Assembly: GCA_043757045.1 (NCBI GenBank)
Contig: JAYVQC010000241.1
Coordinates: 10,410 to 74,409, forward strand
Reading direction: 5' to 3'
DNA from: Akkermansia sp.
GTDB lineage: Bacteria; Verrucomicrobiota; Verrucomicrobiia; Limisphaerales; SIBH01
DNA length: 64,000 nt
Numbering within the stretch: the first letter of the stretch is position 1; each line of letters starts with the position of its first letter. Below the pieces are notes generated by a model. It did no database searches. It was given only the letters and a program-made list of their open reading frames with translations, and was not told the DNA's origin. Below are positions 4,770-33,500 of the stretch, in pieces. The position numbers and the translations under genes were made by a program.

Positions 4770-4778
4770 GGCGATGTT

Positions 4779-7157: not shown

Positions 7158-7238
7158 CGTGCGAAAGACCGGCGTGCTTCCTTGGTTCGTGATCGTCCGT
7201 GCCAATTCACGTTGAAGCGGGCTAAAGCCCGCGCTCCA
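7131..7238. repeat. REP-like perfect palindrome, 31-bp arms with a 46-bp spacer
   Basis: tggagcgcgggctttagcccgcttcaacgtg (7131..7161) and its exact reverse complement cacgttgaagcgggctaaagcccgcgctcca (7208..7238). Each arm contains its own palindrome, gcgggct-tt-agcccgc. Confidence 0.9.
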
Positions 7239-7323
7239 CGTTGCGCTTTCGGACGGCGTTGCCCATTTCATAGCTTGCAATTCTGGCATCGCGCCTCTGG
7301 CTGTCTTGTCTTAAATAACGCCC

Positions 7324-14698: not shown

Positions 14699-14760
14699 GT
14701 GATTTCTTTTATCCGCCACACCCGCGCGAGGCGATGCAAAAATCCTGACGCGGGGGGCAC

Positions 14761-14917
14761 GGACCGCCGAGTCCGCGTGTTCGTAATTCATGGAGCGAAA
14801 AATCCCTCACGCCAAGTCCGCCAAGGGCGCAAAGGTAAAGATCGTTCGCCCGGTTTCACTTTGCGTCCTTCGCGTCCTTTGCGTGAGGCCAAAAGAAACA
14901 CGCGGACTCGGCGGTCC
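14761..14917. repeat. MITE-like element with the same termini (copy 2), perfect 21-bp inverted repeats, different interior
   Basis: ggaccgccgagtccgcgtgtt (14761..14781) and aacacgcggactcggcggtcc (14897..14917). The interior holds a second hairpin built from 9-mer tandem units: cctcacgccaagtccgccaagggcgcaaagg paired with cactttgcgtccttcgcgtcctttgcgtgagg. Confidence 0.8.
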
Positions 14918-14928
14918 GCGCTCCGCAC

Positions 14929-16149
14929 TCACCGCGCCCCGATCTTCAACGCCCGCACCCGGTCGCCGTCGTTGATGCGGTCGCCGGGATAAATGATCAC
15001 CGCGTCCCCTTCGCTCAGGCCGTTCGTGATTTCCGTTTCAGTGCCGGAAGTACGTCCGGTGGTCACAGCCTGAAACACCGCGCGCCCGCTGCGGATCGCA
15101 AACACCGCGTGCTGTTCACCCCGACGAAAAACCGCGCCCGACGCGACCTTCAAAACCTTGTCCGCCTCCCAGGTGACGATGCGGGCCTCGACTCGGAAAT
15201 TGTCGCCCACGCCCGCGCGCTGTTCGAGCGGCGTGACGATGTCCGCAATGACGTTCACGCGCTGCTCCTCGACACCGAGCGCAGAGACTTTCGTGAACGC
15301 AGCCGGTTCGACCAATCGCACGCGCGCCTGCAACGGCTCCACACCGCCCCACTGTTCCAACTCCACGCGTGTGCCGGGCCGGATGGCCGCGCCGTCGCGC
15401 GACAGGACTTCAATCACCACTTCGAGGTCGGCGGGATTGCCGATTTCCACCAGCGGCAATCCGGCGGTCACGACGCGCGAGCTTTCTTCGAGAACGCGCA
15501 GCACACGACCGCCAGTGGGGGCTTTGACTTCGGTGGGCGGGCGGGCGGGACTGGTCGTGGGCGCTCCGAACTCCGCGAGTTCCGCCTCCACTTGACGCAG
15601 CGCGGCCTGGGCGGCGGTGAGTTCCTTGGCGGCGGTCGTCTCGCGCAACTGGCCTTGTTCGAGTTCCTGGATGGAAACAGTTTTCTCAGCGAACAAAGTG
15701 TCAAAGCGTTTCAATTCGCTGGCGGCAAATTTCTGCGCGGCGCGGGCGCGTTCGACGTTCGCGAAGGCGGTGTCGCGCCGGGCCTCGGCCAGCGCACGGG
15801 TGCGGGCGTCGAGCAACACGGGCGAGAGCGGATCAATGACCGCGACGACGGTTTCGCCCGCAATGATTTCCGCGCCGGCCTTGAACGGAATGCGCCGCAA
15901 CTGTCCTGCGACCGGCGCGGACACCACGTAGCGTTGCTTGATGCGCGTCTTGCCCTCCTCGTTCACCGTCGCGCGCAGGCCGCCGCTCACGACTTGCACC
16001 GTCTCGACGGGCAAGGGCTTCGGCCACAAGCCACCAACAATGAGCGCGAGCAGGAGCAGTGCGCCTGCGTAGGGCAGCCACCGGCGGCGCGGTGCGCGGC
16101 GTGCTTCGTGTCGGCGCGGCTGGAGCGTTTCTTTCGTCGGCGAATCCAT
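14929..16149 (-). CDS. HlyD-family membrane-fusion (periplasmic adaptor) protein
   Basis: 406-aa ORF. Cytoplasmic Arg-rich N-terminus, one TM (AGALLLLALIVGGLW), a lipoyl-like hairpin (VSAPVAGQLRRIPFKAGAEIIAGETVVAVIDP), a coiled-coil and a beta-barrel (GGRVLRVLEESSRVVTAGLPLVEIG). Confidence 0.85.
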   Translation of the reverse strand: MDSPTKETLQPRRHEARRAPRRRWLPYAGALLLLALIVGGLWPKPLPVETVQVVSGGLRATVNEEGKTRIKQRYVVSAPVAGQLRRIPFKAGAEIIAGETVVAVIDPLSPVLLDARTRALAEARRDTAFANVERARAAQKFAASELKRFDTLFAEKTVSIQELEQGQLRETTAAKELTAAQAALRQVEAELAEFGAPTTSPARPPTEVKAPTGGRVLRVLEESSRVVTAGLPLVEIGNPADLEVVIEVLSRDGAAIRPGTRVELEQWGGVEPLQARVRLVEPAAFTKVSALGVEEQRVNVIADIVTPLEQRAGVGDNFRVEARIVTWEADKVLKVASGAVFRRGEQHAVFAIRSGRAVFQAVTTGRTSGTETEITNGLSEGDAVIIYPGDRINDGDRVRALKIGAR

Positions 16150-16977
16150 CGTGGTGGGAAGCCTAATGGTGCCGGTCGCAACTTTCGAGTTTTGTCCGGC
16201 ACCCGGCGTTTCCGCCTTCCGGTGGGCTGAGCCTAACGATTGTTATTTGATGAGGTCGCAGTTTCGCGAGTCCAAAATCGCCGGGCCGTGAAAACGACCC
16301 TTTAACTGCACAAAAGCGTAGTCGTCGAACACCGGTGGGCTGCGAAGAATCGCGAACCCAGAGCGGGTGGAAATATGCGTAATTTTGCGAGGTAAAAACA
16401 GGGTATTACCACGCTATTTGTGTTGGCGTAAAAACAGAATCGGCCCGGGGAATTCCGGTGCGCAGTCCGCCAGGCATTCAATGCTCCCGCTTGAGTCTTG
16501 GGCGTGGTTTGAGACGGCTCGAGTCGTAAAATCCTGACTTAAAAATTGCCCCGCAGTTCGGGCGAAACTTGTCGCCCGTCAGCAAACGCAAATTGAGGAA
16601 ATCACCATTATCAAATGACTTTCGATGAGGTTTCTAAAGTTTTTTTAATGTCCTACCGTTAGAAACATGGCATTCGTTTTTTGCGGCGACCCAGGGTACT
16701 ACGAGGCGGCACAGCGACAATTCTTTCCCCGAAATCGTCCTTTCCATTTCTGCCCGCGTTGCCATAGGTTTTCTTACGCAATGAGTGTCTCGCCCAAAAT
16801 TGGGCAGTCGGCCTTCCGCTCGGTGATTTTTAGCCAGCTACTCTTGTCGTAATTTCGCGCATTTCACCGAAAAGCTAGTAGGCATGGCCGCTGCTGACTG
16901 GGGCGAGACTGGTCGCAGGACTGAAGAGCGGATTGGGATGATTCAACTGCGGCAGGGAAAATTTGGATGTGACCCCT

Positions 16978-17652
16978 ATGAGCAATCAGAAGAAAGTGAA
17001 AATCAAAGTGCTGGCGGTTGATGACCACCCGGTCGTCGTGGAAGGCGTGCGTTCCTGCCTCCGTCCCTTTACGCAATTTGAGGTCGTGGGCGTGGCCGCA
17101 GGAGGAGAAGACGCGCTGGCCAAGGCCAAGAAACTTTTGCCCGATGTCATCCTCATGGACATCAACATGCCGGGCTTGGACGGACTGGAAACGACTCGTC
17201 GGCTCAAACAGGCCTGCCCGAAGGCCAGGGTGCTGATGTTCGCCGGGCGCGAGGAAAACGACGCGGTGGGAGAGATGATTCAGGCCGGAGCCAAGGGCTG
17301 CATCCGTAAGAGCGCGTCGGCAGAGGAACTGGTTTCCGCCATCGAACGCGTCCATCAGGGTGAAACTTTCTTCTCGGCGGATGTCGCGCAGATGTTTTTC
17401 GAGGATTACGTGAAGCGCGGCGGCCGGGCGCAGGAGAACGTGACCAAGCGCATTTCCGAGCGTGAGCGCCAGGTGCTGCACCTGATCGTAGAAGGCGCGG
17501 CGAATAAAGAGGCGGCGGATACCCTGCAAATTAGTGTTCGCACGGTCGAGAAGCACCGTCAGCGCATCATGAAGAAGCTGGGCGTCCACAAGGCCACGGA
17601 ACTCGTGCGATTTGCCATCACCAAGGGCATTGTGAATGTCGGGGCCTATTGA
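16978..17652 (+). CDS. NarL/LuxR-family response regulator (REC plus LuxR HTH), no kinase gene in the window
   Basis: ORF 16963..17652, with the ATG at 16978. REC has VLAVDDHPVV and DVILMDINMPGLDG (phospho-acceptor Asp present). The HTH reads ISERERQVLHLIVEGAANKEAADTLQISVRTVEKHRQRIMKKLGV. Confidence 0.9.
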   Translation: MSNQKKVKIKVLAVDDHPVVVEGVRSCLRPFTQFEVVGVAAGGEDALAKAKKLLPDVILMDINMPGLDGLETTRRLKQACPKARVLMFAGREENDAVGEMIQAGAKGCIRKSASAEELVSAIERVHQGETFFSADVAQMFFEDYVKRGGRAQENVTKRISERERQVLHLIVEGAANKEAADTLQISVRTVEKHRQRIMKKLGVHKATELVRFAITKGIVNVGAY

Positions 17653-17932
17653 GGTATGAGCTGCGCGGCCTTGTTTGCCGCCATTCCGACCGTTCACTTT
17701 TTGCGCCCGGTGCCCCGTCTTTTTTCGAGACTCGTCTGCCTCAGTTTGAGATTACGCAAGACAGCGTAATTTTTGGGTTCGCACTAAGGCGCAGGCTTTC
17801 GTTCGCACTTTACCCAGATTCACGGTTCGGAAGTCCGCCGTTAAAGATCTATGTACGTTGGTTCACCGAAAGGGAGGAAGAGGTTTCCCGGAAAAATGCA
17901 GGTGATACTCAACTAATGCCCGGAAGGGACCG

Positions 17933-19771
17933 ATGGATACGCACGAAGCTCGTGAAAGTTCGCAGCGAGTTTCTTCTGCCGGTCCGAATCAGAAAGTTTC
18001 AGAAGTAATGCTTGGAAACGCACAAAGCGCCGTTCCTGAATCAACAGGAAAGGCCTTATTGACCGATGATGCGCTGCAATGCCGCCGAGGAGCGGGATGG
18101 CAGCGCCAATTGGTTGTCACCATCGCCCTCATTGCGATGGCGGTCGTGCTTTTGCGCATCGTGGGCGGCGTGAACACTTGGGCCACGCACCGCCTCGAAG
18201 TCCTTCTGACCGTGGGCGGCATCGCCTTCTGGCGCTGGAGTTGGTTCCTCCTTCAGAACGTGCGGGCCATCATCTATCGCTACTGGGTATTTCCCCGCCT
18301 GCGCCGTGATGCCGAGCGCGCGGTGGCCGAGATGGGTCCGGTGCCGGAAGTGACCGTCCTCGCCACGACTTACCACGAGAAGCCTTGGATCACTCGCGCC
18401 GTCTTCGGCTCCATTTTCCGCGAACTCAGCACGCTGCAAGGTTTGGTTAAACCACCCACGCTGATTTGCATCGGCGGCTGCGACGAGGATGACGCGACCA
18501 TCCGCGCCATTCACGCCGAGTGCAGTGCGGAATTGACCCCCGCTGATCCGTCACAATGGCCGCCGAGACTCATCATCGGGCGTGGCGACAAGGGCAAGCG
18601 CCTTGCGCTCGGCCTCGGCATGGAGGAAATCTCCCAGCTTAGTCTGCGCGAAGACGGCGTGGTCATCATTCTCGACGGCGACACCATGTTTCAGACCGGT
18701 CTGCTCGCGAAGGTGCTGCCCATTTTCCGCCTCAAACCCACCGTCTCCGCCATTACAACGAATGAAGATGGCACGGTGAAAGGCGACCCTTGGATCGCGG
18801 AATGGACTTCGCTGCGCTTCGGTTTGCGCCATCGTTCCATGTGCTCGATTTCGCTCTCCGGCAAACTGCTCTGCCTCACCGGGCGTTTTTCTGTTTTCCG
18901 CGCGGCTGTGGTTATTGACCCGAGCTTCCGCGCACAGGTTGAGCACGATGTCATTCATCATTGGCTCTGGGGTTCCTTTGAAATGCTCAGTGGCGACGAC
19001 AAGAGCACCTGGTTCTGGCTGGCAAAGAATGGCCATCGAATGCTCTACGTGCCGGACGCGATGGTCTCGACGTTTGAAGTCGTCTCCGGTTCTGCGGTGC
19101 ATCGCGCGATGGCGAATACGCGCCGCTGGTCCGGCAACAGCGTGCGCCACGGCTGGCGGGCCATGATGCTCGGGCCGAAGAAGCTCGGCTGGTTCCCGTG
19201 GTATTGCCTCATTGATCAGCGGCTCACGATGCTGACAATTTTGTTCGGCCCGTCCGTCGCGATTTTCACCTGCGTGACGGGGCGGTGGGACATGGCGGCG
19301 GCCTATTTGCTTTGGGTTTTTTCCTCACGCATCGCGCACGCATCGATTTCATGGCGGCACGGACGGCGCTTCTCGGCCTACTACATTCCGCTGCAAGTGA
19401 TCGCGGACTGGGTCACGGCGCTGACGAAGTTGTGGGTCATTTTCCACCCGGCAAAACAGAACTGGATGAACCGCGGCAAGCGGACGCTGAACACGACGCA
19501 AGGCTCGGCGTTCTATAAATTGCGCACCGGCTTCGCCCACTACCTCTACGCGTTTTCTTGCGCGTGCGTGATGATCACGGTCGGGCTGGCGCTCGGCTTC
19601 CTCCCGATTTTCCGCGACACGCGGCTGTTCATGCGTTCGACGCCGGCTAAACAACAGACGGAGCCGAAGTCCGATTCTCAGGCGCGCAAACCTTTCTTCA
19701 ATTTCTTCGGCAAGCAAGTCGCCACGAAACCTATTTCACAAAACGCCCTGGCCGCGTCTCCCGAACTCTGA
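17933..19771 (+). CDS. alg8: Alg8-like family-2 glycosyltransferase (mannuronan-synthase type), polytopic membrane protein
   Basis: 612-aa ORF. Blocks match my recollection of Pseudomonas Alg8: VFPRLRR after TM2, ILDGDTMF (DxD), ITTNE, WTSLRFGLRHRSMCSISLSGKLLCLTGRFSVFRA, MLSGDDKSTWFWL, YVPDAMVSTFE and RRWSGNSVR (the QxxRW-equivalent). Multiple N- and C-terminal TM segments. The alternative start at 18008 cannot be excluded. Confidence 0.75.
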   Translation: MDTHEARESSQRVSSAGPNQKVSEVMLGNAQSAVPESTGKALLTDDALQCRRGAGWQRQLVVTIALIAMAVVLLRIVGGVNTWATHRLEVLLTVGGIAFWRWSWFLLQNVRAIIYRYWVFPRLRRDAERAVAEMGPVPEVTVLATTYHEKPWITRAVFGSIFRELSTLQGLVKPPTLICIGGCDEDDATIRAIHAECSAELTPADPSQWPPRLIIGRGDKGKRLALGLGMEEISQLSLREDGVVIILDGDTMFQTGLLAKVLPIFRLKPTVSAITTNEDGTVKGDPWIAEWTSLRFGLRHRSMCSISLSGKLLCLTGRFSVFRAAVVIDPSFRAQVEHDVIHHWLWGSFEMLSGDDKSTWFWLAKNGHRMLYVPDAMVSTFEVVSGSAVHRAMANTRRWSGNSVRHGWRAMMLGPKKLGWFPWYCLIDQRLTMLTILFGPSVAIFTCVTGRWDMAAAYLLWVFSSRIAHASISWRHGRRFSAYYIPLQVIADWVTALTKLWVIFHPAKQNWMNRGKRTLNTTQGSAFYKLRTGFAHYLYAFSCACVMITVGLALGFLPIFRDTRLFMRSTPAKQQTEPKSDSQARKPFFNFFGKQVATKPISQNALAASPEL

Positions 19772-19780
19772 ACATTCACC

Positions 19781-20995
19781 ATGAGCACCACCCCCAACGA
19801 CCAACCCAAAACCAAAGCGCCGGTCGCGCGCACCGTCGTGATCTGCCTCGTGCTGATTCTGACGCTTGCGGCCATTGCCCTCGCGATTCCGTGGGCGAAC
19901 TACCGTTACAAAAACATCGTCCTGCGCGAAGCGTCTGTGCGCGGTGCGGTCACCAAGCTCGGGGCGCGCATTGATGGGCGCATCAAGAGCATCGAAGTCG
20001 TACCCGGCCAGATCGTGACCAAAGGCCAGATCCTTTTGCGGATGGAAGACAGCCACTTGCGCGCGGCGCTGGAGCGGGCGCGGGGTGATCTGAAGTCCGC
20101 CAAGCTTGAACTCGAAAACGAAAAACTCAGTATCGCCCAGGCCCGTCGCCGCCTGATTTTCGAGATTGATCGCAGCAAACTCGCCATCAAAAAGGCCACC
20201 AGCGAAGTCGCCGCCCAGACCAGCAGCCTCACCCGCTTGGAGAAACAATACGACCGCGTCTCAGCCCTCGTTAAGACCGGCGCCGCCGCCGTCGCCGAAC
20301 TCGACAAAATCACCGGCGACCGCGACCGCTCCCTCGCCTATGTCAACTCCGCCGGCACCTCCCTCGAAGTCGCCGAGACCAACCACGAACGCGCAAAGTC
20401 CGAACTCGAAGGACTGCAAATCCGCGAAAACCGCCTCGGCGTCATGGAAGTACAAATCGCCGTCGCCCAAGCCAAAGTGGACATCGCCGAAGCCGACATC
20501 GAATCCGCCATCGTCACCGCCCCCGAAGACGGCCGCGTCATCGAACGCATCGTCAACATCGGCGGCTCCGCCAAAGTCGGCGAGCCCATTCTCTCCGTGT
20601 GGATTGGCAAAGCCTGGGTCGAGGCGTGGGCTGATGAGCGCGACCTGCACAAGATTCAAACCGGCAGTCCCGTGGACATTTCCTTCGACTCCTCACCGGA
20701 TCGCAAACTGACCGGTCGCGTCGAAAGCATCGGCCTGATGACCGACAAGCAGATGGCTCCGAGCCTCGTGCCCACGACGCTGCACGCCTTCATGCGGAAC
20801 AGCGCGATGGTGCCGATTCGCATCGCCCTTGATGACGAGAATCCGCCTGTGCAACTCGGACTCTCCGTCCTCGTTGGCATCCGCAAAGGCGCGGAATCCG
20901 AGTCCATCGCCAAGAAAACGAACGCCACCAAAAACGGCACCGCCACCATTTCCCGTCCCAGCAGCAGCACCGAGCCTTCTGTCACGAAACTCTAA
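19781..20995 (+). CDS. HlyD-type membrane-fusion protein in the Alg44 position, but without a PilZ domain
   Basis: 404-aa ORF starting 9 nt after the synthase. About 17 cytoplasmic residues, then a TM (VVICLVLILTLAAIALAI), a lipoyl hairpin (GRIKSIEVVPGQIVTKGQILLRMED), a long coiled-coil and a beta-barrel (DGRVIERIVNIGGSAKVGEPILSV). The N-terminus is too short to hold a ~100-aa PilZ domain. Confidence 0.8.
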   Translation: MSTTPNDQPKTKAPVARTVVICLVLILTLAAIALAIPWANYRYKNIVLREASVRGAVTKLGARIDGRIKSIEVVPGQIVTKGQILLRMEDSHLRAALERARGDLKSAKLELENEKLSIAQARRRLIFEIDRSKLAIKKATSEVAAQTSSLTRLEKQYDRVSALVKTGAAAVAELDKITGDRDRSLAYVNSAGTSLEVAETNHERAKSELEGLQIRENRLGVMEVQIAVAQAKVDIAEADIESAIVTAPEDGRVIERIVNIGGSAKVGEPILSVWIGKAWVEAWADERDLHKIQTGSPVDISFDSSPDRKLTGRVESIGLMTDKQMAPSLVPTTLHAFMRNSAMVPIRIALDDENPPVQLGLSVLVGIRKGAESESIAKKTNATKNGTATISRPSSSTEPSVTKL

Positions 20996-21071
20996 AACTC
21001 GAAACCAACAGTCCGTTCCAAAACACAGCAGTTCCAAAAACAACAACACCAGAAATCAGAAAGCAGAAAAT

Positions 21072-22532
21072 ATGAAAGTAAGCATCTTCGGTCTCGGATA
21101 TGTCGGGTGCGTCACCGCCGCCTGTTTGGCGAAGGATGGCCACGAAGTCGTGGGCGTGGACGTCGTCGCCTCCAAAGTGGAAAAACTGGCCGCCGGCCGG
21201 GCCACCGTGGTGGAGACGGGTCTCGACGAACTCATCGCGGAGGGTCATCGCACCCGCCGCATCACCGCCACCACCGATGGTCGCAAAGCCGTCCTCGAGA
21301 CGGACGCCTCCATCGTCTGCGTCGGCACGCCCACTGGCAGCGACGGGCAGATGGACCTCACGGCCCTGCGCGCCACCATCGAGTTCATTGGCCGCGCCAT
21401 GCGCGCCAAGATGGACCGCCACGTCGTCATCATGCGCAGCACCGTTCCGGCCGGCACGGCGGAATCGGTCGTGTTGCCGCTGCTCAATCCGAACACGCCG
21501 CCGGCGGCTCTGTTCGCGGACAGCAACCTGATCGTGGTGCCGGAATTCCTGCGCGAAAGCTCGGCCATCGCGGATTATTATGATCCGCCGTTCACGCTGG
21601 TCGGCAGCGCCTCCGGCAAGCCCGACAACAACGCCGAAGTGGTGGAAGAACTCTTCGGCCACATCACCGGCAGCGTGCAGTGGGTGCCGCTCCGCGAAGC
21701 AGAAATGTTGAAGGCCGTGTGCAACGCCTTCCACGCCCTTAAGGTCGCGTTCGCGAACGAAGTCGGCGCGCTCTGCACCGCGATGTCCATTGACGGCCAC
21801 AGCCTGATGGCTCAGTTCGTCAAAGACACCAAGTTGAACATCTCTCCGGCCTACATGCGCCCCGGCCTGCCTTTCGGCGGCTCCTGCTTGCCGAAGGATT
21901 TGCGGATGCTCTGCCAGGTGGCGGGCGATCACGGCGTGGACCTGCCGCTCTTCCGCGGCACGCTGTCCAGCAACGAAGCCCACCTCAAGCGGGTGCTCGA
22001 CCTGGTGCCGAGCCACGGCTCGCGCCGCATTGGTTTGAACGGCCTGGCCTTCAAGTCCGGCACCGACGATTTGCGCGAAAGCCCGATTGTCTTTATCGCC
22101 GAGCATCTCATCGGCAAGGGCTACGACGTGAAGATTCACGATCCTGGCATCCATGAGTCGCTGCTCACCGGCGCGAACAAGGAATACATCGAGACCCGCA
22201 TTCCGCATCTCTCCAGCCGGCTCGTGCCGACGCTCGAGCAGTTGATAGAGCATTCGGACATCCTGTTGCTCACGCGCAACGGCGAGGAACTCGTGCAGAA
22301 GGTCGTGGAATCCGGCAAGCGCCCGATCCTCGTGGACCTGCGCGGTCAGGACAAACTGGTGAAGAAACTTCTCCAGTCCCGCAAGACCAAGAAGGCCATC
22401 GGCGAGGACGCCCTCCTGCCCTCACCGCAGCACGGCAACCGTCCCGCGCCCATCGCCAAGAACGGCGGACGCCCGACAAATGGCAATGGCAACGGCCACA
22501 GCAACGGACGCAAAGACCTGGTCAAAATGTAA
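21072..22532 (+). CDS. algD: GDP-mannose 6-dehydrogenase (AlgD-like; UDP-glucose/GDP-mannose dehydrogenase family)
   Basis: Listed ORF 20829..22532. The real start is the ATG at 21072 (MKVSIFGLGYVGCVTAACLA). Block-for-block similarity to remembered P. aeruginosa AlgD: SIFGLGYVG, VGVDV...K, ICVGTP, VPEFLRESSAIADYYDPP, MRPGLPFGGSCLPKD, GLAFKSGTDDLRESP, GANKEYIE..IPH. It carries a Gly/Asn/Pro-rich C-terminal tail. Confidence 0.85.
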   Translation: MKVSIFGLGYVGCVTAACLAKDGHEVVGVDVVASKVEKLAAGRATVVETGLDELIAEGHRTRRITATTDGRKAVLETDASIVCVGTPTGSDGQMDLTALRATIEFIGRAMRAKMDRHVVIMRSTVPAGTAESVVLPLLNPNTPPAALFADSNLIVVPEFLRESSAIADYYDPPFTLVGSASGKPDNNAEVVEELFGHITGSVQWVPLREAEMLKAVCNAFHALKVAFANEVGALCTAMSIDGHSLMAQFVKDTKLNISPAYMRPGLPFGGSCLPKDLRMLCQVAGDHGVDLPLFRGTLSSNEAHLKRVLDLVPSHGSRRIGLNGLAFKSGTDDLRESPIVFIAEHLIGKGYDVKIHDPGIHESLLTGANKEYIETRIPHLSSRLVPTLEQLIEHSDILLLTRNGEELVQKVVESGKRPILVDLRGQDKLVKKLLQSRKTKKAIGEDALLPSPQHGNRPAPIAKNGGRPTNGNGNGHSNGRKDLVKM

Positions 22533-22591
22533 TTGGAATTGAACGGACGGCCCGCCGCAGCGCCGAGCTGCGGCGGGCTTGCTCGCAAACT

Positions 22592-22683
22592 GAAAAGCAG
22601 AAAGCACAACACAGAAATGAATTCACTAAAGCCCAGGACGCCCTTCTGCTTTCTGCTTTCTGCTTTCTGCTTTCTGCTTTTGC
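22592..22683. repeat. Hairpin element with heptamer-repeat arms (aaagcag)n / (tttctgc)n spanning the epimerase start codon
   Basis: The left arm is gaaaagcagaaagca (22592..22606), upstream of the ATG at 22617. The right arm is ttctgctttctgctttctgctttctgcttttgc (22644..22683), covering codons 10-22. Confidence 0.8.
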
Positions 22684-24494
22684 TCGCCTCCGCCAGCGCC
22701 GTGTCTATCCGCTGGTCCGCCGGCACGAGCGATCCGCTCAACATCAAGACCCCGCGCATTTACGTCACAGGGCCTGGCTCCGCCCAACTCAGCGACATCA
22801 AGGCCGCCGTGCCGAAAGCGCCGCTAGCCCAGGTCGCGCCCGGCGTCTGGCACTTGCGCGCGGAACTTGTCGTCGAGGAAGGCGCACGCCTCGTGCTCTA
22901 CGGCACCAAGCTCGGCGGCGACGTGGACGAACTCCGCCTCCAGAGCAACAACACCGGCAGCCCGATCAACGACATCATCTTCCTCAGCGCCGACTGGGGC
23001 ACGCTCGACATTCGCAGCACCAAGATCACTTCGTGGGACGACGCGGTGAACGGACCCGACACCGAATACAACGTCTATAAACGCTCCTTCGTCCGCATCC
23101 GCTCGGTGCTCGGCACGAATGGCGTGACACCCTTCGAGTCCCGCATGGACATCATTGACAGCGACGTGGGCTACCTCGGCTCGCACAACGCCGAAGCCTA
23201 CGGACTCGTGTGGAAAGTGCTCGAAGAGAAAAACCCCGCCGACCGTCCTTACGGCGCGCTCACGAACCTCTATGCCCTCGTGAACGTGTACGGCAACGTC
23301 TTCCGCAGCCGTCTTCACCACATGTATTTCGGCCACTACTCGTTCGGCTCCTACGGCCAGCACATGGCCGACAACGAGGTGGACCACAACGTCGGCTACG
23401 GACTCGACCCGCACGATGACTCGGACTATCTCCTCATCGAGCGCAACAACGTCCATCACAACGGCTGGCACGGCATCATCGCCTCGCAACGCTGCGATCA
23501 CGCCATCATCCGCAACAACATCACCTGGAACAACGGCAAGAACGGCATCATGCTCCACCGTTATTGCAACGACTCGCTCATCGAGGGCAACCGCACCTTC
23601 CGCAACGGCGACGCCGGCATCGCGCTCTTCGACAACTACCGTACTATCGTCCGCAACAACGTCAGTCTGGAAAACGTCACGGCGGGCATTCGGCTTTCCG
23701 TCGGCCCGGCGGACAACATCATCCATAACAACGAGTTCGCCGACTGCGACAGCTTCGGCATCTATCTCTACAAAGGCGTGGACGCGCCTGCGCCCGGCGA
23801 TAACGGCAAGCCCAAACGCAACGTCTTCCGCAACAACTGGATCCACGACAACCGGGGCCACGGCATCTTCTCTACCAGCGGCGACGACAACACGTTCTCG
23901 CAAAACATCTTCGAGCGGAACGCGAACCTCATCTACTTCGTCAACGGCCAGCGCAACATCTTCGAAAGCAATTCCGTGCCGGCCGGCGTCACGCTGCGGA
24001 TGCAGGGCCTGCCGAACATTCTGACCTCCACAATTATCCGCAACCAGGCCGCGCTGCCCATCCAGGTGGACAACTACAGCACCGCAAATTTCGAGGACAC
24101 GTCCGGGAAAATTTTCGACCCCGAGGAACCCGGCATCGCCACCGTCGCCTCGCCCACCGGCTCGTCGCTCATTCTCTCCACGGTGGACATCGCGAAAACT
24201 TCCTTCGTCCGCACGCGCGCCTTCAAGGTGCGCCCGAACGCCGGCTCCGTGCTCGTCACGCCCACGGTCTGGAACGTCACCGGCGACTTCAGCAAACGCT
24301 GGCTCGTGCAGGCGGGCAGCGCCACCTCGAGCATCATCTACACGGTGGGCGATCTCGAACCGGGCCGTCTCTACACCGTGACCAAGAACGGAGCCGGGAG
24401 CAATTTCACCGCGGACCCCACCGGCACCATCACCTTCACCGACACGGGCGTGTCCACCGGACTCACGGAATTCGTGATTGCACTGAAGCTCTGA
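22617..24494 (+). CDS. Secreted right-handed beta-helix protein, mannuronan C5-epimerase (AlgG/AlgE)-like with a DPHD motif
   Basis: Listed ORF 22533..24494, with the ATG at 22617 (MNSLKPRTPFCFLLSAFCFLLLLASASA signal peptide). CASH/parallel beta-helix repeats read NNVHHNGWHGIIASQ, IRNNITWNNGKNGIMLH, IEGNRTFRNGDAGIALF, VRNNVSLENVTAGIRL. VGYGLDPHDDSDY contains the DPHD motif known as catalytic in AlgG. Confidence 0.7.
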   Translation: MNSLKPRTPFCFLLSAFCFLLLLASASAVSIRWSAGTSDPLNIKTPRIYVTGPGSAQLSDIKAAVPKAPLAQVAPGVWHLRAELVVEEGARLVLYGTKLGGDVDELRLQSNNTGSPINDIIFLSADWGTLDIRSTKITSWDDAVNGPDTEYNVYKRSFVRIRSVLGTNGVTPFESRMDIIDSDVGYLGSHNAEAYGLVWKVLEEKNPADRPYGALTNLYALVNVYGNVFRSRLHHMYFGHYSFGSYGQHMADNEVDHNVGYGLDPHDDSDYLLIERNNVHHNGWHGIIASQRCDHAIIRNNITWNNGKNGIMLHRYCNDSLIEGNRTFRNGDAGIALFDNYRTIVRNNVSLENVTAGIRLSVGPADNIIHNNEFADCDSFGIYLYKGVDAPAPGDNGKPKRNVFRNNWIHDNRGHGIFSTSGDDNTFSQNIFERNANLIYFVNGQRNIFESNSVPAGVTLRMQGLPNILTSTIIRNQAALPIQVDNYSTANFEDTSGKIFDPEEPGIATVASPTGSSLILSTVDIAKTSFVRTRAFKVRPNAGSVLVTPTVWNVTGDFSKRWLVQAGSATSSIIYTVGDLEPGRLYTVTKNGAGSNFTADPTGTITFTDTGVSTGLTEFVIALKL

Positions 24495-24544
24495 TTTTTT
24501 CCGCCGACATGATGAACTACGTGTTAGAAAAAACTTTGGTGACA

Positions 24545-27500
24545 ATGGGAAAGCCGTGTCGCCTGGCGGCGGCGCTGCTGATGGGTGCCGTTGGTCTCAC
24601 GACTCTGGCCCCCGGCGCGGAAGTGGTCGTCACGAACGCCGCCAGCATCACCGCCGCCGCGCTCGCCGCCCAGCCCGGCGACGTCATCGTCATGCAGGAT
24701 GGCGTGTGGCCCGACGCAGACATTCTCTTCGCCTCCTACGGCACCGAAGCCCAGCCCGTCACGATCCGCGCGCAGACGCTGGGACGAGTGCATCTCACCG
24801 GCCAGTCCCGCCTGCGGATGGCGGGTGCCCATCTCGTCGTGGACGGACTCATCTTCACCAATGGCTACCGCACCAGCGGCGACGTCATCGCCTTCCGTGA
24901 CAGTTCCTCCTCGGTGGCGTTCAACTCGAAACTGATCAACTGCGCGGTCATTGGTTACAATCCGCCGAACCCCACCAATGACACCAAGTGGGTCTCGATC
25001 TACGGCGCGAGCAACCGCGTCGAGAGCTGCCATTTCCGCGGCAAGGCCAACGTCGGCACCACGCTCATCGTCTGGGTCAGCGAGCTGCCCGATCCGAACA
25101 ACCCGAACTACCACGTCATCACGCGCAATTATTTCGGCCCGCGCCCGATCCTCACCGCTGCGTCGAACGGCGGCGAAACCATCCGCGTCGGCACCTCGGA
25201 TTACTCGATGAACATTTCGCGCACCACGGTCGAGGACAACTTCTTCGAGCGGTGCAACGGCGACGTGGAAATCATCTCCAGCAAGTCCTGCGAAAACATT
25301 TATCGCCGCAACACCTTCTGGGAATGCGAAGGCGCGCTGACCCTCCGGCACGGCAACAACTGCACCGTCGAGGGCAACTATTTCTTTGGCAATCTCCAGA
25401 CCAACACCGGCGGCGTCCGCATCATTGGCGAGAACCACCGCGTGTTTAACAATTACTTCGAGAACCTGCGCGGCTCGTCGTCGCGCGCGCCGCTTGCGTT
25501 CATGCAGGGGCTTCCGAACTCACCCCTCAACGGCTATTTCCAGGTCAGCAACGCCACCGTCGCCTTCAACACGTTCGTAAATTGCAACAACACCTTCGTG
25601 GTCGGCTTGTCCGGCACCGTGGGCGGTTTGCCCACGTCGCTGCCGCCCAAGGATTCCACGGTGGCGAACAACATCGTGCTTCAGACCTCGGGCCGGATCG
25701 TGGATTTGCGGCTGGGACCGGAGAACTTCACCTGGACCTCGAACTTGTTTGCCAGCACCACGCTGGGCATCACCAATCCGGGCGTGCTGCCGGTGAACGC
25801 GTTGCTGGTCACGAACGGCGTGGATGGAATTTATCGTCCGAGCGTGGCGAGTCCGGCACTGGGGCGTGCGGCGGGCGGGTTTGATTTTGTGACGACGGAT
25901 TTTGAAGGCCACGCGCGTCCGCTCTCGGGCAAGGACATGGGTGCGGATCAGGCGTCGGCCGCGCCGCGCACGAGCGTGCCGCTGTCGGCGCTCGCCACGG
26001 GTCCGCTGTGGATGCGAGTGAGTGGCTCGGTGGTGTCGTGGCCGCCGCCCGCGCCGATTTTTTATGGCACCACGCTGGGCGGTTTGCAGTTGAACGCGCA
26101 GGCGAATGCGGCGGGGACGCTGGCGTATGATCCGCCCGCCGGCACGCTGCTCGCCGCAGGATCGAACCAGGTGTTACGGGTGGTGTTCACGCCGGTGGAC
26201 ACGATCAGTTTTTCGAGCGTGGCGCAGACGGTCACGCTGCACGTTTTGCAGGCTCCGGCGGTGGTGACGTGGCCGCACCCGGCGGAGGTGGCTTATGGCA
26301 CGGCGTTGTCGGCGGCGCAGTTGAATGCGTCGGCGAATGTCGCGGGATCGCTGGCCTACAACCCGACGCTGGGCACGGTGTTGAACGCGGGGACGGGGCA
26401 GGTGTTGCGGGTGGTCTTCACGCCGAACGACGTGGCGAATTTCGCGAGTGTGACGCAGCAAGTGGTGTTGAACGTGGCGAAGGCGCTGCCGAATGTGATC
26501 TGGTCCACGCCGGCGGCGGTGGAGCAGGGTTCGGTTTTGGGTGGCGTGCAGTTGAACGCCTCGGTGGCGGTGCCGGGTTCGTTTGTTTATGGGCCGGCGG
26601 CGGGAACGGTGCTCGCGGCGGGGAGCGGGCAAATTTTGTCCACGGTGTTCACGCCGGCGGACGGGGCGAATTATTTCACGGTCACGCAGACGGTGGAGAT
26701 CAACGTGACCATTGGCGGGCGGACGTTGCCGCGCCTTTCTTGGGCGCAGCCGGCGCCGGTGTTGTTTGGCACGCCGCTGGGGGCGTTGCAGTTGAACGCG
26801 TCGGCAAATGTGTTGGGCACCTTCAGGTACTCGCCGCCGTCGGGCACGGTGTTGCCGGTGGGCAACGGAAATGTGCTGCGGGTGACGTTCACGCCGAATG
26901 ACGGAGATAATTTCGTCGCGGCGACGCAGAGCGTGACGTTGAGCGTGGCGCCGCTGACGAGCAACGCCTTGCTGCGTGTGGCTTACGTCGTGCCGTTCAA
27001 TCGCATTCCGCAAGCGCACGCGACAGCGACGTTGCGCGGGCTGGTGCGGCAGTATCAGGATTTTTTTGCGGCGCAGATGGCGAACAACGGTTTCGGCCGG
27101 CGCTCCTTCACGCTGGAGACGGAGGCGGATGGCGTGACGCCGGTGATTCATGTGCTCACCGTGCCGCAGACGGACAGTTTTTTGCGCGGGGACATTTACG
27201 GGCAGCGCGTATTGGATGCGGCCCGCGGCGCGGGGTTGCCGGTCGGAGCGCCGGGACAGCTTTGGTGGCTGATCCCCGAAGTGCATGTGCAGAATCCCGA
27301 CGGCACGATAAGCGGCAGCTTTGAACTCGGCGTCCACACGAACACGTCACCCATCAGCTCGGGCTGGGCGATCAGCAGCAGCGAAAAACTGGCCCTGTAT
27401 CAGACGAAGTACCAGACGAACGCGCTGCTTTACGACGGACGCATCGTGCCGGAACTGGGGCCGTATCCGCTGGTCCAGGATGTGTCGTTCCCGTGGTTCG

Positions 27501-30500
27501 AGGGCATCACACTCTCAGGCATCAGCTCGTCGGTGGTCGGCTCGGGGGCGCGGAGCATCGGCTCGGCGTTCGGTCTGCCGCATGATTTTCGGAACGACGA
27601 AAATTTCAACGGCAACCTGATGGGCTTCGGCTTCCGGGGCATCCGCGGCGTGTTTCACCCGGAGCTGTATCTCTACAATTACTGCACGCTTTCCTACGCC
27701 TCGGCGCTGAACTTGAGCGCGAATCCGTTCTTCAGCCCCGGACGTCTCGCGACGGACATCGTGCCGCCGAACGTGAGCGTCACGACCTCCGGCCCCCGCG
27801 CGCCCTTCGGCGGTCTGCTCGACATTGAATTCACCGCCACGGACGACCAGGCATTGCACTCGGCGGTGCTGACGTGGGAACAGTCGGCGGATTTCGTGAT
27901 GGCCGAGGAGATGTTACTGAACGGCACGTCGGCGGGCGGTACTTTTTCCACCGCCTTTTATTTGCCGGGCCAGACGAACCGCTACCGCGTCACGGTCTAT
28001 GATCGTTTCGGCAATGAGCGTTCGGCCACGACCACCATCGTGCCGTCCGTGCCGGTCAACCAGGCTCCGCAGCCCTTCATCCGCGTCCGCCCCGTGATCG
28101 CGGGACCGGGTGAGGATGTGCTGCTGGATGCCTCGGAAACTTTTGATCCAGAACACACCGTGGGCTTCCTCGAAGTGGAATGGGATCTCACCGGTGATGG
28201 AAACTTCGACACCGCGCCCACCAGCGAACTGGCGGGCCTGTTCAACTTCAGCACGCTGGGCAGCCGCCTCATCCGCGCGCGCCTCACGGACCCGGCGGGT
28301 GATGTCGCCATCTCCGCGCCCGTGGCCCTGAACATTGTGGATTGCCAGACGGGCCTTTCTCCGACCAGCCGCAGCCACGGCTACGGAGGCGGCGCGAACA
28401 AAGTCACCGTCACGGCGGGACCGAAATGCCGCTGGCTGCCCGTGACCACGAATGACTGGATCACGCTCACGAACGGAAACTATCCCGTCGGTCGCGTCAC
28501 TTCTGCCCCCGTTTCCTGTTACGAGGCGGTGGGACCTTCGCCGGTGGGACCGAGAGTGGACGGGCCGGAATTCACCGGCACCGTGGTCCTCAACTACACC
28601 CTCGCGGCCAACCCGCTCTTCACCGAGCGGCGCGGTTACATCTTCATTGGCGATCAAATTTACACGGTCATCCAGCAGCCGGCGGTCTGCACGTTCTCGA
28701 TTTCACCGACCAACCGTTTTCATGGCTACGGCTCCGGCGGCAGCGGCACCATCAAAGTCACGCCCAAGGCGAGCTGCCCGTGGACGGCGATCAACACGAA
28801 CTCCTGGATCACCATCACCTCGGGCGGCAGCGGCACGGGCACGGGCACGGTGAACTACGTCATCGGCGAGAACCGTGTGACCGGGCGGCGCTCGGGCAAC
28901 ATCGTGATTGATGACCGCGTCTTCACCGTCTCGCAGTGGGGTACGAACTGTGAAGTCGCCGTCAACCCCGCGACGCGCGAGCACTCCGCCAGCCCTGAGG
29001 CCGTCACCAACACGATCAGCACGGCTTCGCTTTGCCCGTGGGTGGTCGAGAACACGAACGGCTGGATCAGCATCCTGTCGCCGTTGAGCGGAAACATTTC
29101 GAGCAACCTCATCTATTCTGTCGCGCCGAACTTCGGCGCGGAGACGCGCACCGGTGTCGTGACGGTCAACGGCGAGACGTTGATCATTACACAGTCGGCG
29201 TGCTCGTTGTCCATCGAACCGGCGGCGCGCGCGCATCTGTTCTCCGCGTCCACGGGTTCGATCTGTGTCGCGGCGGGACCGATTTGCGCGTGGTCGGTGA
29301 GCACCACGAACACTTGGATTTCTATCCTGTCCGCGTCGAGCGCGATCAGCACGGGGCGTGTGGATTATGTCGTCGAGGCCAATCCCATCAGCGTGGCGCG
29401 CGTCGGCGTCATCTCGGTGGCGGGGTATGAGTTCCTCATCACGCAAGACCCGAAGCCGTGTTATTTCGCGGTCACGAACATGGACGAGGCGCGCAGCGAA
29501 AGCTTCGGCGAGAGCGGCGGCGACAGTGCCATTTACATCTACACCGACATCGGCTGCAACTGGACGGCGGTCTCGGACTCGACGTGGATTTCCATTCTCG
29601 ACGGCGCTTCCGGCCACGGTTCCGGCACGGTCATCTTCGTGGTCGCGCGCAACGCCGGCCCGGCCCGCAGCGGCCTCATCACGGTCGCGGGCGAGGATTA
29701 TCACATCACGCAGGCCAGCGGCGTGCGCGAGGTGCGGCTCACGGACACGGTCGTGGCGAGCGGGCAGACCAACGCGATTTACATCATCCTCGATGCGCAC
29801 GGCGGCGAAAACACGCTGGCCTTCAGCCTGTGCTACGACACGAACTTGCTCGCCTTCGCCTCGGCGTCCTTGCTCCCGTCCGCGCCACTCACGGCGGTGT
29901 TGACGGTGGCGAACCAGCAGGCGGCGCAGGGCCAGGTCGGCCTCACCGTCGCGATGCCCAACGGCTTCTCGCTCCCCGCCGGCACCGGCACGGTGGTGAA
30001 AGTTTTGCTCGCGGGCAAACTGGTCAACGGCAAGCCCTACACCACGGTCAGCGTGTGCGACGCGCCCGTCGCGCGCTCCTTGACGGACGCGGGTTCTCCG
30101 CCTTCCGCGCTGACGGCGAGTTTCGGCAGCAGCACCGTGCGCGTGCTCGGCCTGTGCTCGCTGGCCGAAGCGCTGGACGTGACGAATCTGACCTTCGTGA
30201 CCGGCCCGATCCCGTGGGGCTGCCAGGCGGAAGTGACGCACGATTTCGAAGATGCGGCCGTGAGCGGCACGGTGCCGGCGAGCGGTGAATCCTATTTTGA
30301 AACCACCGTGACCGGCCCCGGCACGTTGAGCTTCTGGTGGAAAGTATCGAGCGAACTGGACAACGATCGTCTGCGTTTCTACATGGACGGCGGCACGCAG
30401 TTCACCCTCTCCGGCGAAGTGGACTGGGAGGCGCGCACCTTCAGCGTGCCGGCCGGCGCGCACACCTTCCGCTGGCGCTACAACAAAAACCTCGGGACGA

Positions 30501-33500
30501 TCACGAACGGCCAGGATCGCGCGTGGGTGGATCGGGTCGTCTATGAGGCCGCGCCGCCGAGCATCACCAGCCAGCCCGTGGCGCAGGCCGTGGATCAGGG
30601 CGCGACGGCGACCTTCAGCGTGGCGGTCGCGGGCCAGGCTCCGTTCACGTATCAATGGCGGTTGAACAATGCGCCGCTGGTCGAGAACGCGGTCATTCGC
30701 GGCACCATCACGCCCACGCTCACGCTCTCGAATGTGCAGCCCTCGCAGATCGGAAATTACTCCGTCGTCATCACCACGGCGCAGGGCGCGCTGGTCAGCT
30801 CGAACGCGCCGCTCACCGTCACGCCGCTGTTGCCGCTGCCCGAGGCGCTCGACACCACGTTCAACATCACGTCGAGCGGCAACGCGAACTGGGTCGGCCA
30901 GGCGCTCGTCTCGCACGACGGCGTGGACGCGGGCCGCAGCGGGCCGATCACGCACAACCAGTCGTCATCGTTCCAAACCATCATCAACGGCCCCGGCACA
31001 CTCCGCTTTTGGTGGAAAGTTTCCTCCGAATCCGGTGACCGCCTGCGCTTTCTCATCAATGGCGTCGAGCAGACCGGCATCACGGGTGACGTGGACTGGC
31101 AGGAAAAAATTTACACTCTCGGCCCCAACGCCCAGACGCTGCTCTGGACTTACGCGAAAAATTCCAGCGGCTCGCTGCTCGAAGATCGCGGCTGGGTGGA
31201 TGAAATCCGCTTCCTCCCGCAAGCCGTCGCCATCACCGCGCAGCCCACGAACCAGATCACCGACCAGGGCACGAACGCCCTCTTCGCCGTGGGCGTGAGC
31301 GGCACCCCGCCCATTTATTATCAATGGCTGTTCAACAACGCACCCATCCCCGGCGCGAACAGCGCGACGCTCAATGTTCCCAACGTGCAGCCTGCGAACA
31401 ACGGTCTCTACTCCGTCTTCGTCACCAACGTCGTCGGCAGCACGACCAGCTCGAACGCCTCCTTGCTTGTGAACCTCCTCGTCCCGCTGGCCGAGGCGCT
31501 CGACACCACGAACCTCACCTGGACTACCACCACGACCCCCGCCGGAGCCGCGCCGTGGGTCGGCCAGGTCGCCACTTCGCACGACGGCACCGACTCCGCC
31601 CGCACCGGCATCATCGGGGACGGCGTCACCACCACGCTCGCCACCACGCTGACCGGACCCGGCACGTTCTATTTCTGGTGGAAAGTTTCCTCGCAAGGTG
31701 CCGGCTCCGACCGCCTGCGCTTCTACATCAACGGCTCCGCGCAGGAGGACATCTCTGGCGAAGTGGACTGGACTTTCCGCAGTTGGACCATCCCCAGCGG
31801 CGCGAACCAGATCGTGGATTTCCGTTACGTGAAAAACGCCAGTGGCAAGGCCGGCCTCGACATGGGCTGGGTGGACCAGGTGCGTTACGTGCCGAACGGC
31901 ACGCCCACCGCGCCGTTCTTCGCCGTGCAACCGGCCCCTCGCACCGTGGTCGTGCCGGCGGGCGTCAGCTTCAACGCCCTGGCCGGCGGGTCCACGCCGC
32001 TCAATTACCAATGGCAGTTCAACGGTGTGCCGCTGACCAACGGCGCCGGCATCGCCGGCGCTACGACCACCAACCTCACGCTCAGTGGCGCGGCGGCGGC
32101 CGTGGCGGGAAATTATTCCGTGCTCGTCACGAACAGCGCGGGGGCCACGCTCAGCGCGCCGGCCTCGCTCACCGTCATCACCGCGCCTTTCATCACGAAC
32201 GCGCCGGTGGACCGCTACGCCGTCGCCGGATCGAACGCCGTCTTCAACGTCGGCGCGCTCGGCCAAGCCCCGCTCACCTACCAGTGGATGCGCGACGGCA
32301 CGAACCTGATCAACGGCGCGAAGTTCAGCGGCGTCACCACTTCCAATCTCACCATCCTTAGCGCGCAGGTGGCAGATGAAGGAGTTTATTCCGTCATCGT
32401 GAGCAACGCCGCCGGTACCGCAAGCAGCTTGCAAGGCGCAGGCACGCTCACCGTTTGGAGCGCGGCGCGCAGCGGCGTGATTGCGAACAGCGGGAACACC
32501 TTGCTCGAAGCGAACGTGACCGGACCGGGCACGATTAAGTTCGCGTGGAAAGTTTCCTCGCAGACGAACAGCGACTCCTTCCTCTTCCTGCGTGGTGCGA
32601 CGGAACTTGCCCGCATCTCCGGCGAAGTGGACTGGCAGCAGCAGACGTTCGCCATTCCGGCGGGCGCGCACACCTTGCGCTGGCAGTACGTGAAGGACGC
32701 GGCCGGCAGCGCCGGTTCCGACGCGGGCTTCCTCGATCATGTGGAGTTCATTTCCGACACCGCCGTCGCGCCCCAGGTCACGGGGCAGCCGACGGGCCGC
32801 ACCGTGTTCTCAGGTAGCACCGTGAGCTTCGACGCAACGGTGACCGGCTCCATGCCGCTCACCTATCAATGGCGTTTGAACGGCACGCCGCTGTTCAACT
32901 CCGCCAGCATCGGCGGCGCGCAGACGCCGCGTCTCACGCTCTCCGGTCTCACGCTCGGCCAGGCGGGCAGCTACTCACTGCTCGTCAGCAACGCGGCGGG
33001 CGTCGTCACCAGTTCAAACGCCGCGCTCGTCGTCAATGCCCTTCCGGCGGGCAACGCGCCCGTCATCACCACGCCGCCCACGAGTTATCAGACGAGCGAG
33101 AACGCTTCTGTGACTTTCACCGTCGCCGCGACCGGCGCGGCCCCGCTCAGTTATCAATGGTTCTTGAACGGCGCTCCGCTCGCGAACGTCGCCGGAGCCA
33201 GCCCCGTCAGTGGCGCGACCACCGCGAGCCTCAGCTTGAGCAACGTGCAGGCGACGCAGGCGGGCAACTACACCGTGGTCGTCAGCAACGCCGTCGGCCT
33301 CGCCAGCGCCCGCGCTTCGCTCTCCGTCCTCACGCTCGGCGAGGCGGCAGGCGCTCCCTACATCGCCTTCGCCCAGGCCGGCAACGCCTCGTGGATCGCG
33401 CAGACCAGCGCCACCGCGCACGACGGCGTGGACGACGTCCGCTCCGGCGTCATTAATCACGGCGAAAATTCGCGCCTGGAAACGTATGTCGAGGGACCGG

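Follow-up and report, generated by a model that had tools for sequence, protein, structure and literature searches.

The window analysed here is a 64-kb stretch of contig JAYVQC010000241.1 from an assembly assigned to Akkermansia sp. (Verrucomicrobiota). It contains a gene cluster that we read, with modest confidence, as a system for the synthesis and export of an alginate-like (mannuronate-based) polyuronate, in which a core of Alg8-, AlgD- and AlgG-type proteins is combined with a different apparatus for crossing the cell envelope. All genes from ~16.9 kb to the window end are located on the plus strand. The core consists of an Alg8-type membrane GT2 synthase (17933–19771), an EmrA-type membrane-fusion protein (MFP; 19781–20995), an AlgD-type GDP-mannose 6-dehydrogenase (21072–22532), and an AlgG-like right-handed beta-helix protein (22617–24494). 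An earlier note, made from the sequence alone, had placed these four genes at the same coordinates and had taken the genome for a non-proteobacterial one. The nearest relatives are indeed metagenome-assembled genomes (MAGs) of Pedosphaera sp. (Verrucomicrobiota), whose synthase is 95% identical. The GT2 and MFP genes are separated by 10 bp, and neighbouring genes of the cluster are otherwise 10–77 bp apart or overlap.

The synthase (PF13641) showed 34% identity over 424 aa to Alg8 of Pseudomonas aeruginosa (BLASTP, E 8e-74). The P. aeruginosa alg operon used as a reference (locus L005) encodes an AlgD 100% identical to the AlgD sequence from PDB. A sequence search of the synthase against PDB chains, including BcsA, hyaluronan synthases, and chitin synthases, gave no matches at E ≤ 1, and its sole NCBIfam match was NodC (2e-4). 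The motifs DGD, TTNE, SGDDKS, and RRWSGN were invariant across 41 GT2 homologues. In the AlphaFold2 (AF2) model (predicted local distance difference test, pLDDT, 84), the protein is composed of the GT2 domain and transmembrane (TM) helices without an extra domain, with residues 1–35 and ~579–612 disordered. The fold matched the Chlorella virus hyaluronan synthase (1.5e-14), followed by BcsA and Chs1, all at only 11–16% identity. The likeness to Alg8 rather than to cellulose, hyaluronan, or chitin synthases, which the earlier note had proposed, was thus borne out. No domain for binding cyclic di-GMP (c-di-GMP) was seen in the AF2 model of the synthase, and no PilZ domain was found in it by Pfam. 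From the model, the synthase is predicted to be processive, both polymerising the chain and translocating it. In an unrooted neighbor-joining tree, the window-type clade (Verrucomicrobiota, Planctomycetia, and Myxococcales), the cyanobacterial clade, and the Pseudomonas Alg8 formed separate groups, ~30–36% identical pairwise. JGI annotation names such synthases "Alg8 / mannuronan synthase".

The dehydrogenase most likely starts at 21072 and not at the start of the open reading frame (ORF), 20829. Its best match in PDB was AlgD of P. aeruginosa (1mfz, E 2.3e-117, vs. 5.9e-60 for the best UDP-glucose dehydrogenase), and the identity to P. aeruginosa AlgD was 46% over 428 aa (E 4e-132). The enzyme is, judged from these comparisons, clearly of the GDP-mannose type and not of the UDP-glucose type, in agreement with the likeness to AlgD suggested before.

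The ORF of the beta-helix protein spans 22533–24494; the probable ATG is at 22617 and is followed by a signal peptide. The protein carries a C-terminal extension of ~180 aa. Its segment NVGYGLDPHDDSDY aligns with "YGIDPHDRSH" of AlgG 4ozy (E 4.5e-15), and the catalytic motif VGYGLDPHDDSDY (DPHD), quoted in the earlier note, is present and in register with that structure. The identity to P. aeruginosa AlgG was 27% (E 1e-25). The NCBIfam AlgG model also matched (2e-29), yet with 102 bits vs. an equivalog cut-off of 700. We regard this protein as a putative mannuronan C5-epimerase related to AlgG; its sequence does not tell an epimerase from a lyase.

The MFP was assigned to the EmrA subfamily (TIGR00998 EmrA, 7e-34, NCBIfam) and also matched HlyD_3/HlyD_D23. 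Its AF2 model (pLDDT 83) comprises a TM helix (residues 14–44), a lipoyl domain, a beta-barrel, and two hairpin helices (residues 91–165 and 171–242). The hairpin arms of 75 and 72 residues were modelled with pLDDT >90; at 1.5 Å per residue, the hairpin would be ~110 Å long. The closest structures to the model were EmrA in the EmrAB-TolC pump (8zar, 4e-24) and then EmrA 4tko. At the hairpin tip, just ahead of the turn, G167 was invariant among 40 family members, and at least 90% of them shared R159 and L163. The spacing R-x3-L-x6-(A) resembles the RLS motif, by which MFPs bind TolC (Lee et al. 2012, as cited in PMC13438883). The modelled hairpin length and the conserved tip motif are features for reaching TolC, and docking itself is what we infer from them.

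The earlier note had likened the MFP to the periplasmic part of Alg44, which did not hold. BLASTP against Alg44 gave E 0.007 over 58 aa, and a global alignment with the periplasmic part of Alg44 was uninformative. According to the subfamily model and the structure match, the protein is an EmrA-type adaptor and not specifically Alg44-like. Two other statements on the MFP, that it has ~17 cytoplasmic residues before its TM helix and that it lacks PilZ, proved correct: the hydrophobic stretch begins at about residue 18 (AF2 helix 14–44), and Pfam found no PilZ domain in the MFP, while the same model detected P. aeruginosa Alg44, the positive control, at 9.9e-15. PilZ (PF07238) was found in 0 of the 120 MFP homologues listed. 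It was also absent, by Pfam, from the MFPs adjoining Alg8-like genes in a Planctomycetia MAG, three Myxococcales/Polyangiaceae MAGs, and two cyanobacteria; for cyanobacterial MFPs, this absence was already noted by Pereira et al. 2015 (PMC4594306).

Pfam and NCBIfam scans were run on every substantial ORF of the window. None of these ORFs matched PilZ, Sel1/AlgK, Alginate_exp/AlgE, ALGX, AlgF, MBOAT, or PF05426. The window therefore contains, as had been claimed, no AlgK/AlgE pair, no acetylation genes (AlgI/J/F/X), and no PL5 lyase of the AlgL type. PL5 (PF05426) is present in two sister clusters (L001 and L169).

A genome scan with one genome per species yielded at least 578 stretches encoding Alg8-like relatives, and our statements on synteny rest on a phmmer map of the best 80 of these loci. 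Among the best 80 are Verrucomicrobiota, Planctomycetia, Myxococcales/Polyangiaceae, and a large number of Cyanobacteria, besides a few MAGs that belong elsewhere or whose binning is doubtful. In nearly all of these ~80 loci from four phyla, the GT2 and MFP genes are adjacent or overlapping; the GT2 gene comes first in Verrucomicrobiota and Myxococcales, and the MFP gene in Planctomycetia and Cyanobacteria. In Verrucomicrobiota, Planctomycetia, and Myxococcales, the pair is followed by AlgD-like and AlgG-like genes. Synteny of the synthase core with the lyases described below extends to orthologues of ~55% identity.

Some loci depart from this arrangement. In L003/L168, L089, L093, and L103, the order is GT2-MFP-AlgG-PL6 giant, and an AlgD gene is missing between those for the MFP and AlgG, so the dehydrogenase must be encoded elsewhere or the precursor supplied otherwise. 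A 771-kb contig of Verrucomicrobiae (L001/L105) carries the GT2-MFP-AlgD-AlgG core, in which AlgG-like genes number two, and also encodes phosphomannose isomerase (PMI), an AlgL-type lyase of family PL5, and, upstream, a PL7 lyase (PF08787); a HisKA_3 kinase and two response regulators are encoded nearby, and the PL6 giant is missing. In loci of many filamentous and other cyanobacteria within L107–L164 (e.g., L117 8411–11932, L142, L144, L156, L160, and L161), the Alg8-like gene is preceded by a PilZ-less HlyD-type MFP. The cyanobacterial Alg8-like proteins are ~36% identical to the window synthase over trimmed alignment columns, and several of these loci have an adjacent AlgD-like dehydrogenase.

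A TolC-family outer-membrane channel is encoded at 40506–41951 (OEP 3e-69; TIGR01844 1.4e-61), as the earlier note had stated. We looked up eight orthologues of this protein (54–92% identical), three of which (P0256, P0261, and P0259) were picked without regard to context. All eight were located within the same cluster type, and in five of the eight loci the order was PL6-Ig giant, TolC, PL8 lyase, response regulator, LTD/CotH giant. One of the eight regions, L168, is on the same contig as L003, which bears response regulator-GT2-MFP-AlgG-PL6 giant. Locus L169 is a compact array of GT2, MFP, AlgD, PL5 alginate lyase (PF05426), TolC, PL8, and BACON genes. In Myxococcales, one MAG (L102) has the order AlgD-GT2-MFP-TolC, and in another (L122) TolC is 3 kb off. 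Neither the 16–64 kb part of the window nor the syntenic loci contained a gene for an ABC, MFS, or RND transporter; hence, the sole MFP available for TolC in these clusters is the one coupled to the synthase. These data support the synthase-MFP-TolC route suggested in the earlier note, in which the three proteins would form a physical complex.

Between the core and TolC lies a gene for a secreted protein of 5315 aa (24509–40456) with a signal peptide, a PL6 alginate-lyase-like head (Chondroitinas_B 7e-105), BACON domains, and many Ig domains (Ig_3/I-set x15). In PDB, the PL6 head matched the alginate/poly-mannuronate lyases 7o84 (8e-91), AlyGC (1e-89), and 7o77 (2e-76), and chondroitinase B at 4e-30. 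This PL6-Ig giant is syntenic in L002, L003, L085, L088, L091, L093, L166, L168, and L170–172. Directly after TolC, in the window and in L166–L172, comes a PL8 lyase gene (41948–46504; Lyase_8_N/Lyase_8/Lyase_8_C) whose product also carries CBM96, Big_7, and PA14 domains. The earlier note had assigned the lyase function to the PL6-headed giant; the PL6 assignment stands, but this second lyase had been overlooked. The AlgG-like protein, the PL6 giant, and the PL8 lyase all have signal peptides, and both lyases bear surface-type modules (Ig, BACON, CBM96, and PA14). With such signal peptides and adhesin-like domains, the lyases are likely to work on the outer membrane or outside it and not in the periplasm. 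Further downstream are a giant LTD/CotH/PA14 protein of 3442 aa (47253–57581), a syntenic companion of the cluster that occupies the same position in L168 and L170–172 and is probably a surface or matrix protein; a secreted BACON-repeat protein (57715–60621; BACON 1.5e-33), also encoded after PL8 in L169; and a second BACON-repeat gene, which starts at ~60715 on the plus strand and runs off the window end.

Four large secreted proteins, namely the PL6-Ig giant, the PL8 lyase, the LTD/CotH giant, and the BACON protein, share a C-terminal module of ~65 aa (encoded at 40154–40453, 46202–46501, 57279–57578, and 60319–60618, respectively). Its consensus is roughly L..DG..SL.W.G.AG...LQ.ST.L..W..V..LTNT.GR.EF, and it ends with RFYR, RFYQ, or KYLR. 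A comparison of these modules with NCBIfam gave no matches; the module could be a sorting or anchoring signal.

Two response regulators of the NarL/LuxR type (REC plus GerE helix-turn-helix) are encoded in the cluster. The first (16963–17652; Response_reg 1.4e-27, GerE 1.6e-18) is directly upstream of the synthase gene, and the second (46560–47225; Response_reg 4.8e-26, GerE 1.1e-18) follows the PL8 gene; they are paralogues (E 1e-75). A response regulator adjoins the GT2/MFP genes in at least nine Verrucomicrobial loci (L085–L088, L003, L093, L090, L091, and L098), and the second one is found in the same position in L165, L168, and L170–172. Of the rewired regulation described in the earlier note, the lack of PilZ was retained, while both response regulators had escaped notice.

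In the mechanism that we propose, the AlgD-type dehydrogenase would make GDP-mannuronate as the precursor, from which the Alg8-type synthase would build the chain and thread it through the inner membrane, as homology and fold suggest. An EmrA-type MFP hexamer would assemble over the synthase, a protein lacking a periplasmic domain; architecture, synteny, and precedent point to this. The ~110 Å hairpin of the MFP would meet a dedicated TolC trimer tip-to-tip, giving a continuous closed duct in place of Alg44-AlgK-AlgE. TolC is the proposed exit duct for the polymer, and production and export would depend on it. The AlgG-like DPHD protein would epimerise the chain, which the PL6-Ig giant and PL8 lyase would trim. 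Control would be transcriptional, through the two NarL-type response regulators, with no PilZ/c-di-GMP receptor on the synthase or MFP.

Several points weigh against this reading. Some of them relate to the polymer, whose mannuronate nature is suggested by the AlgD type of the dehydrogenase, the closeness of the PL6 head to alginate lyases, and the presence of PL5, PL7, and PMI in sister clusters (L001 and L169). The catalytic region of the PL8 lyase is nearest to xanthan lyases (6f2p, E 1.9e-204; 1j0m, 7e-176), with hyaluronate and chondroitin lyases much further away, and not to known alginate lyases; the product may thus be something other than plain alginate, for instance a modified chain or a heteropolymer. 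The AlgG-like protein, scoring so far below the equivalog cut-off, could be a lyase; mannuronan epimerases and alginate lyases have a common mechanism. The Alg8-like clade is just ~30–34% identical to canonical Alg8. These facts would suit a product that is another uronic-acid polysaccharide, either a mannuronate heteropolymer or a glucuronan/xanthan-like chain made by enzymes sharing ancestry with the Alg proteins, in which case the beta-helix protein would be a lyase and not a C5-epimerase. We consider such a product unlikely, since the dehydrogenase is clearly of the GDP-mannose type, the PL6 head fits alginate/poly-mannuronate lyases far better than chondroitinase B, and two further alginate-lyase families (PL5 and PL7) are encoded in sister clusters. 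In addition, alginate-active PL8 enzymes have been reported (PMC11596371). A glycosaminoglycan product (hyaluronan- or dermatan-like), at which the Chondroitinase_B and PL8 matches might hint, was rejected on account of the GDP-mannose dehydrogenase, the Alg8-type synthase, and the alginate-lyase-like PL6 head.

Other unfavourable points relate to export. The physical contact between GT2, MFP, and TolC is something we infer. The TolC gene lies 16 kb downstream of the MFP and is immediately flanked by two lyase genes, so its tightest linkage is to the lyases: in the orthologous loci, TolC always has PL8 on one side and the PL6 giant (or a PL5 lyase) on the other, and in the window the start of the PL8 gene (41948) overlaps the stop codon of the TolC gene (41951). 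The L001/L105 clusters have the GT2-MFP-AlgD-AlgG core without TolC within 10 kb. The alternative favoured by this linkage is that an alginate-like polymer is made, but TolC serves the flanking giant proteins (PL6-Ig, PL8, LTD/CotH, and BACON) or general efflux. The polymer would then exit via a porin encoded elsewhere, and the MFP would merely scaffold or activate the synthase, as proposed for Alg44. The C-terminal module ending with RFYR on four large proteins, as a possible sorting signal, would fit the same picture. However, the giants bear ordinary N-terminal signal peptides, which classical TolC-dependent type I substrates are not known to have, and the cluster includes no ABC transporter. 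Its sole MFP is coupled to the synthase and has, with the long EmrA-like hairpin and tip motif, an architecture for reaching TolC. Moreover, in Myxococcales the GT2, MFP, and TolC genes are consecutive, and no giant lyase was found by PL6 and PL8 queries in the fetched flank. For these reasons, we judge this alternative unlikely.

The synthase-MFP-TolC model also has a difficulty of its own, namely that an epimerase in the periplasm would not be able to reach the chain inside a closed MFP-TolC duct. A duct closed to periplasmic enzymes would fit editing of the polymer at the cell surface, which is the weakest part of our interpretation. Furthermore, genes for AlgK/AlgE or PilZ proteins, or algA, could lie beyond the 64 kb in the rest of the genome, and c-di-GMP may bind at a non-PilZ site, by analogy with BgsA. 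Very improbable, finally, is that the region serves mainly for catabolism, as a foraging locus with a battery of surface lyases for external acidic polysaccharides and with the GT2/MFP/AlgD genes as an unrelated neighbour operon: two big multi-domain lyases with CBM, PA14, and BACON modules are indeed typical of polysaccharide foragers, but the array showed no genes for sugar transporters, TonB receptors, or uronate metabolism, the synthase core and lyases keep their synteny in orthologous loci, the genes in the window overlap or are separated by short gaps, and a lyase is also described as part of canonical alginate operons (PMC8829089).

A broader version of the synthase-MFP-TolC reading can be put forward only tentatively. 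A sealed duct of Alg8, EmrA-like MFP, and TolC, with no c-di-GMP/PilZ checkpoint, might serve the export of an alginate-type polyuronate in abundant soil and freshwater Verrucomicrobiota and, in related form, in Planctomycetia, Myxococcales, and perhaps Cyanobacteria. Because such a duct is closed, all editing, both C5-epimerisation and lyase trimming, would have moved to giant cell-surface enzymes. The PilZ-AlgK-AlgE system of Pseudomonas would then be one specialised form of a much broader and older family.

Compared to the alginate system of Pseudomonas and Azotobacter, the cluster has a homologous synthase (34%), dehydrogenase (46%), and DPHD beta-helix protein (27%), a lyase within the biosynthetic cluster, and a gene of the MFP fold next after the synthase. 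The differences concern mostly the envelope. Alg44 of Pseudomonas has PilZ and a periplasmic part of ~210 residues, which leaves no room for the ~150-residue hairpin of the window MFP. AlgK/AlgE, AlgX, and AlgIJF are present there and not in the window, whereas TolC is part of the cluster here; the periplasmic PL5 lyase is matched here by PL6 and PL8 giants. The Pseudomonas regulators AlgU/AlgR/AmrZ are not encoded in the window, which has NarL-type response regulators instead. "Atypical" alginate operons lacking algKE were described by Bundalovic-Torma et al. 2020 among 1733 complete genomes (PMC7112194). They are likewise Alg8-containing loci that have lost the genes of outer-membrane transport and modification; however, losses were described there and not a replacement by MFP-TolC, and Verrucomicrobia are not mentioned in that paper (0 occurrences).

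The idea of a tripartite synthase-MFP-TolC route has precedents in cyanobacterial cellulose and rhizobial mixed-linkage glucan, the only two polymers, both glucans, for which it has been put forward until now. In Sinorhizobium meliloti, BgsA (GT2) and BgsB (HlyD-type MFP) produce mixed-linkage glucan, TolC is genetically required, and a tripartite synthase-MFP-TolC complex was proposed (PMC13438883). As in the window, a processive membrane GT2 is encoded beside a HlyD-type MFP. In contrast, Bgs makes a neutral glucan by means of a BcsA-like synthase whose C-terminus binds c-di-GMP, and a housekeeping tolC is located elsewhere in the genome, while the window has an Alg8-type synthase without a c-di-GMP domain and a dedicated TolC in the cluster. 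The cellulose synthase of Thermosynechococcus is a PilZ-bearing enzyme of the BcsA type. This system differs also in its polymer, cellulose vs. a predicted polyuronate made in the window by an Alg8-type synthase with an epimerase-like protein and lyases. For the extracellular cellulose of Thermosynechococcus, a tripartite route of synthase, HlyD-like MFP, and TolC was proposed (Maeda et al. 2018, as cited in PMC13438883). The EmrAB-TolC pump resembles the proposed assembly in having an MFP that is anchored by one N-terminal TM helix, lacks a membrane-proximal domain, and extends a very long hairpin, as well as an inner-membrane partner without a periplasmic domain, so that the adaptor alone spans to TolC. 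The partner is an MFS transporter there, and a glycosyltransferase with a polymer substrate here. A literature search, with most subscription journals outside its reach, found no relevant paper on Alg8-type clusters in Verrucomicrobia or Planctomycetes or on Alg8 with TolC.

Alginate synthesis has been treated as essentially a trait of Pseudomonas and Azotobacter. Polyuronates made by relatives of the window cluster, if confirmed, would change the view of which organisms produce acidic matrix in soils, sediments, and sludge, and the synthase-MFP-TolC route would be extended from neutral glucans to a charged polymer. The TolC being dedicated and encoded in the cluster, the tripartite model is directly testable. 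The system also bears on the role of the MFP domain of Alg44 and on the question of whether control by c-di-GMP was there from the beginning or was added later. For the production of bacterial alginate, a compact set of genes such as that of L169 (GT2-MFP-AlgD-lyase-TolC) may be transferred more easily than the 12-gene Pseudomonas operon.

Scans for promoters and terminators gave counts not above those in shuffled sequence, so operon limits could not be drawn from them. Two sets of minus-strand ORFs were rejected as genes: a 277-aa ORF (16864–17697) is a shadow of the plus-strand response regulator gene at 16963–17652, and the ORFs at 60646–63855 are shadows of the plus-strand BACON-repeat gene from ~60715. 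At a distance of 2–6 kb upstream, a divergent two-gene unit (12050–16149, minus strand) encodes an MFP of the RND/MacA type (406 aa) and a 913-aa TPR protein similar to YbgF/BamD; no transporter partner for this unit was found in the window. We considered the TPR protein as an analogue of AlgK and rejected it, as it showed no AlgK similarity, its TPRs are of the YbgF/BamD type, and it is not syntenic with the cluster elsewhere. The second MFP was rejected as a cluster component together with this neighbour, since it does not accompany the cluster elsewhere. Further upstream, three ORFs of 296, 1054, and 170 aa (3276–7364 and 11262–11774) without any Pfam or NCBIfam match had a third-position GC of 0.56–0.62 vs. 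~0.8 in neighbouring genes, and by this composition may be foreign or fast-evolving.

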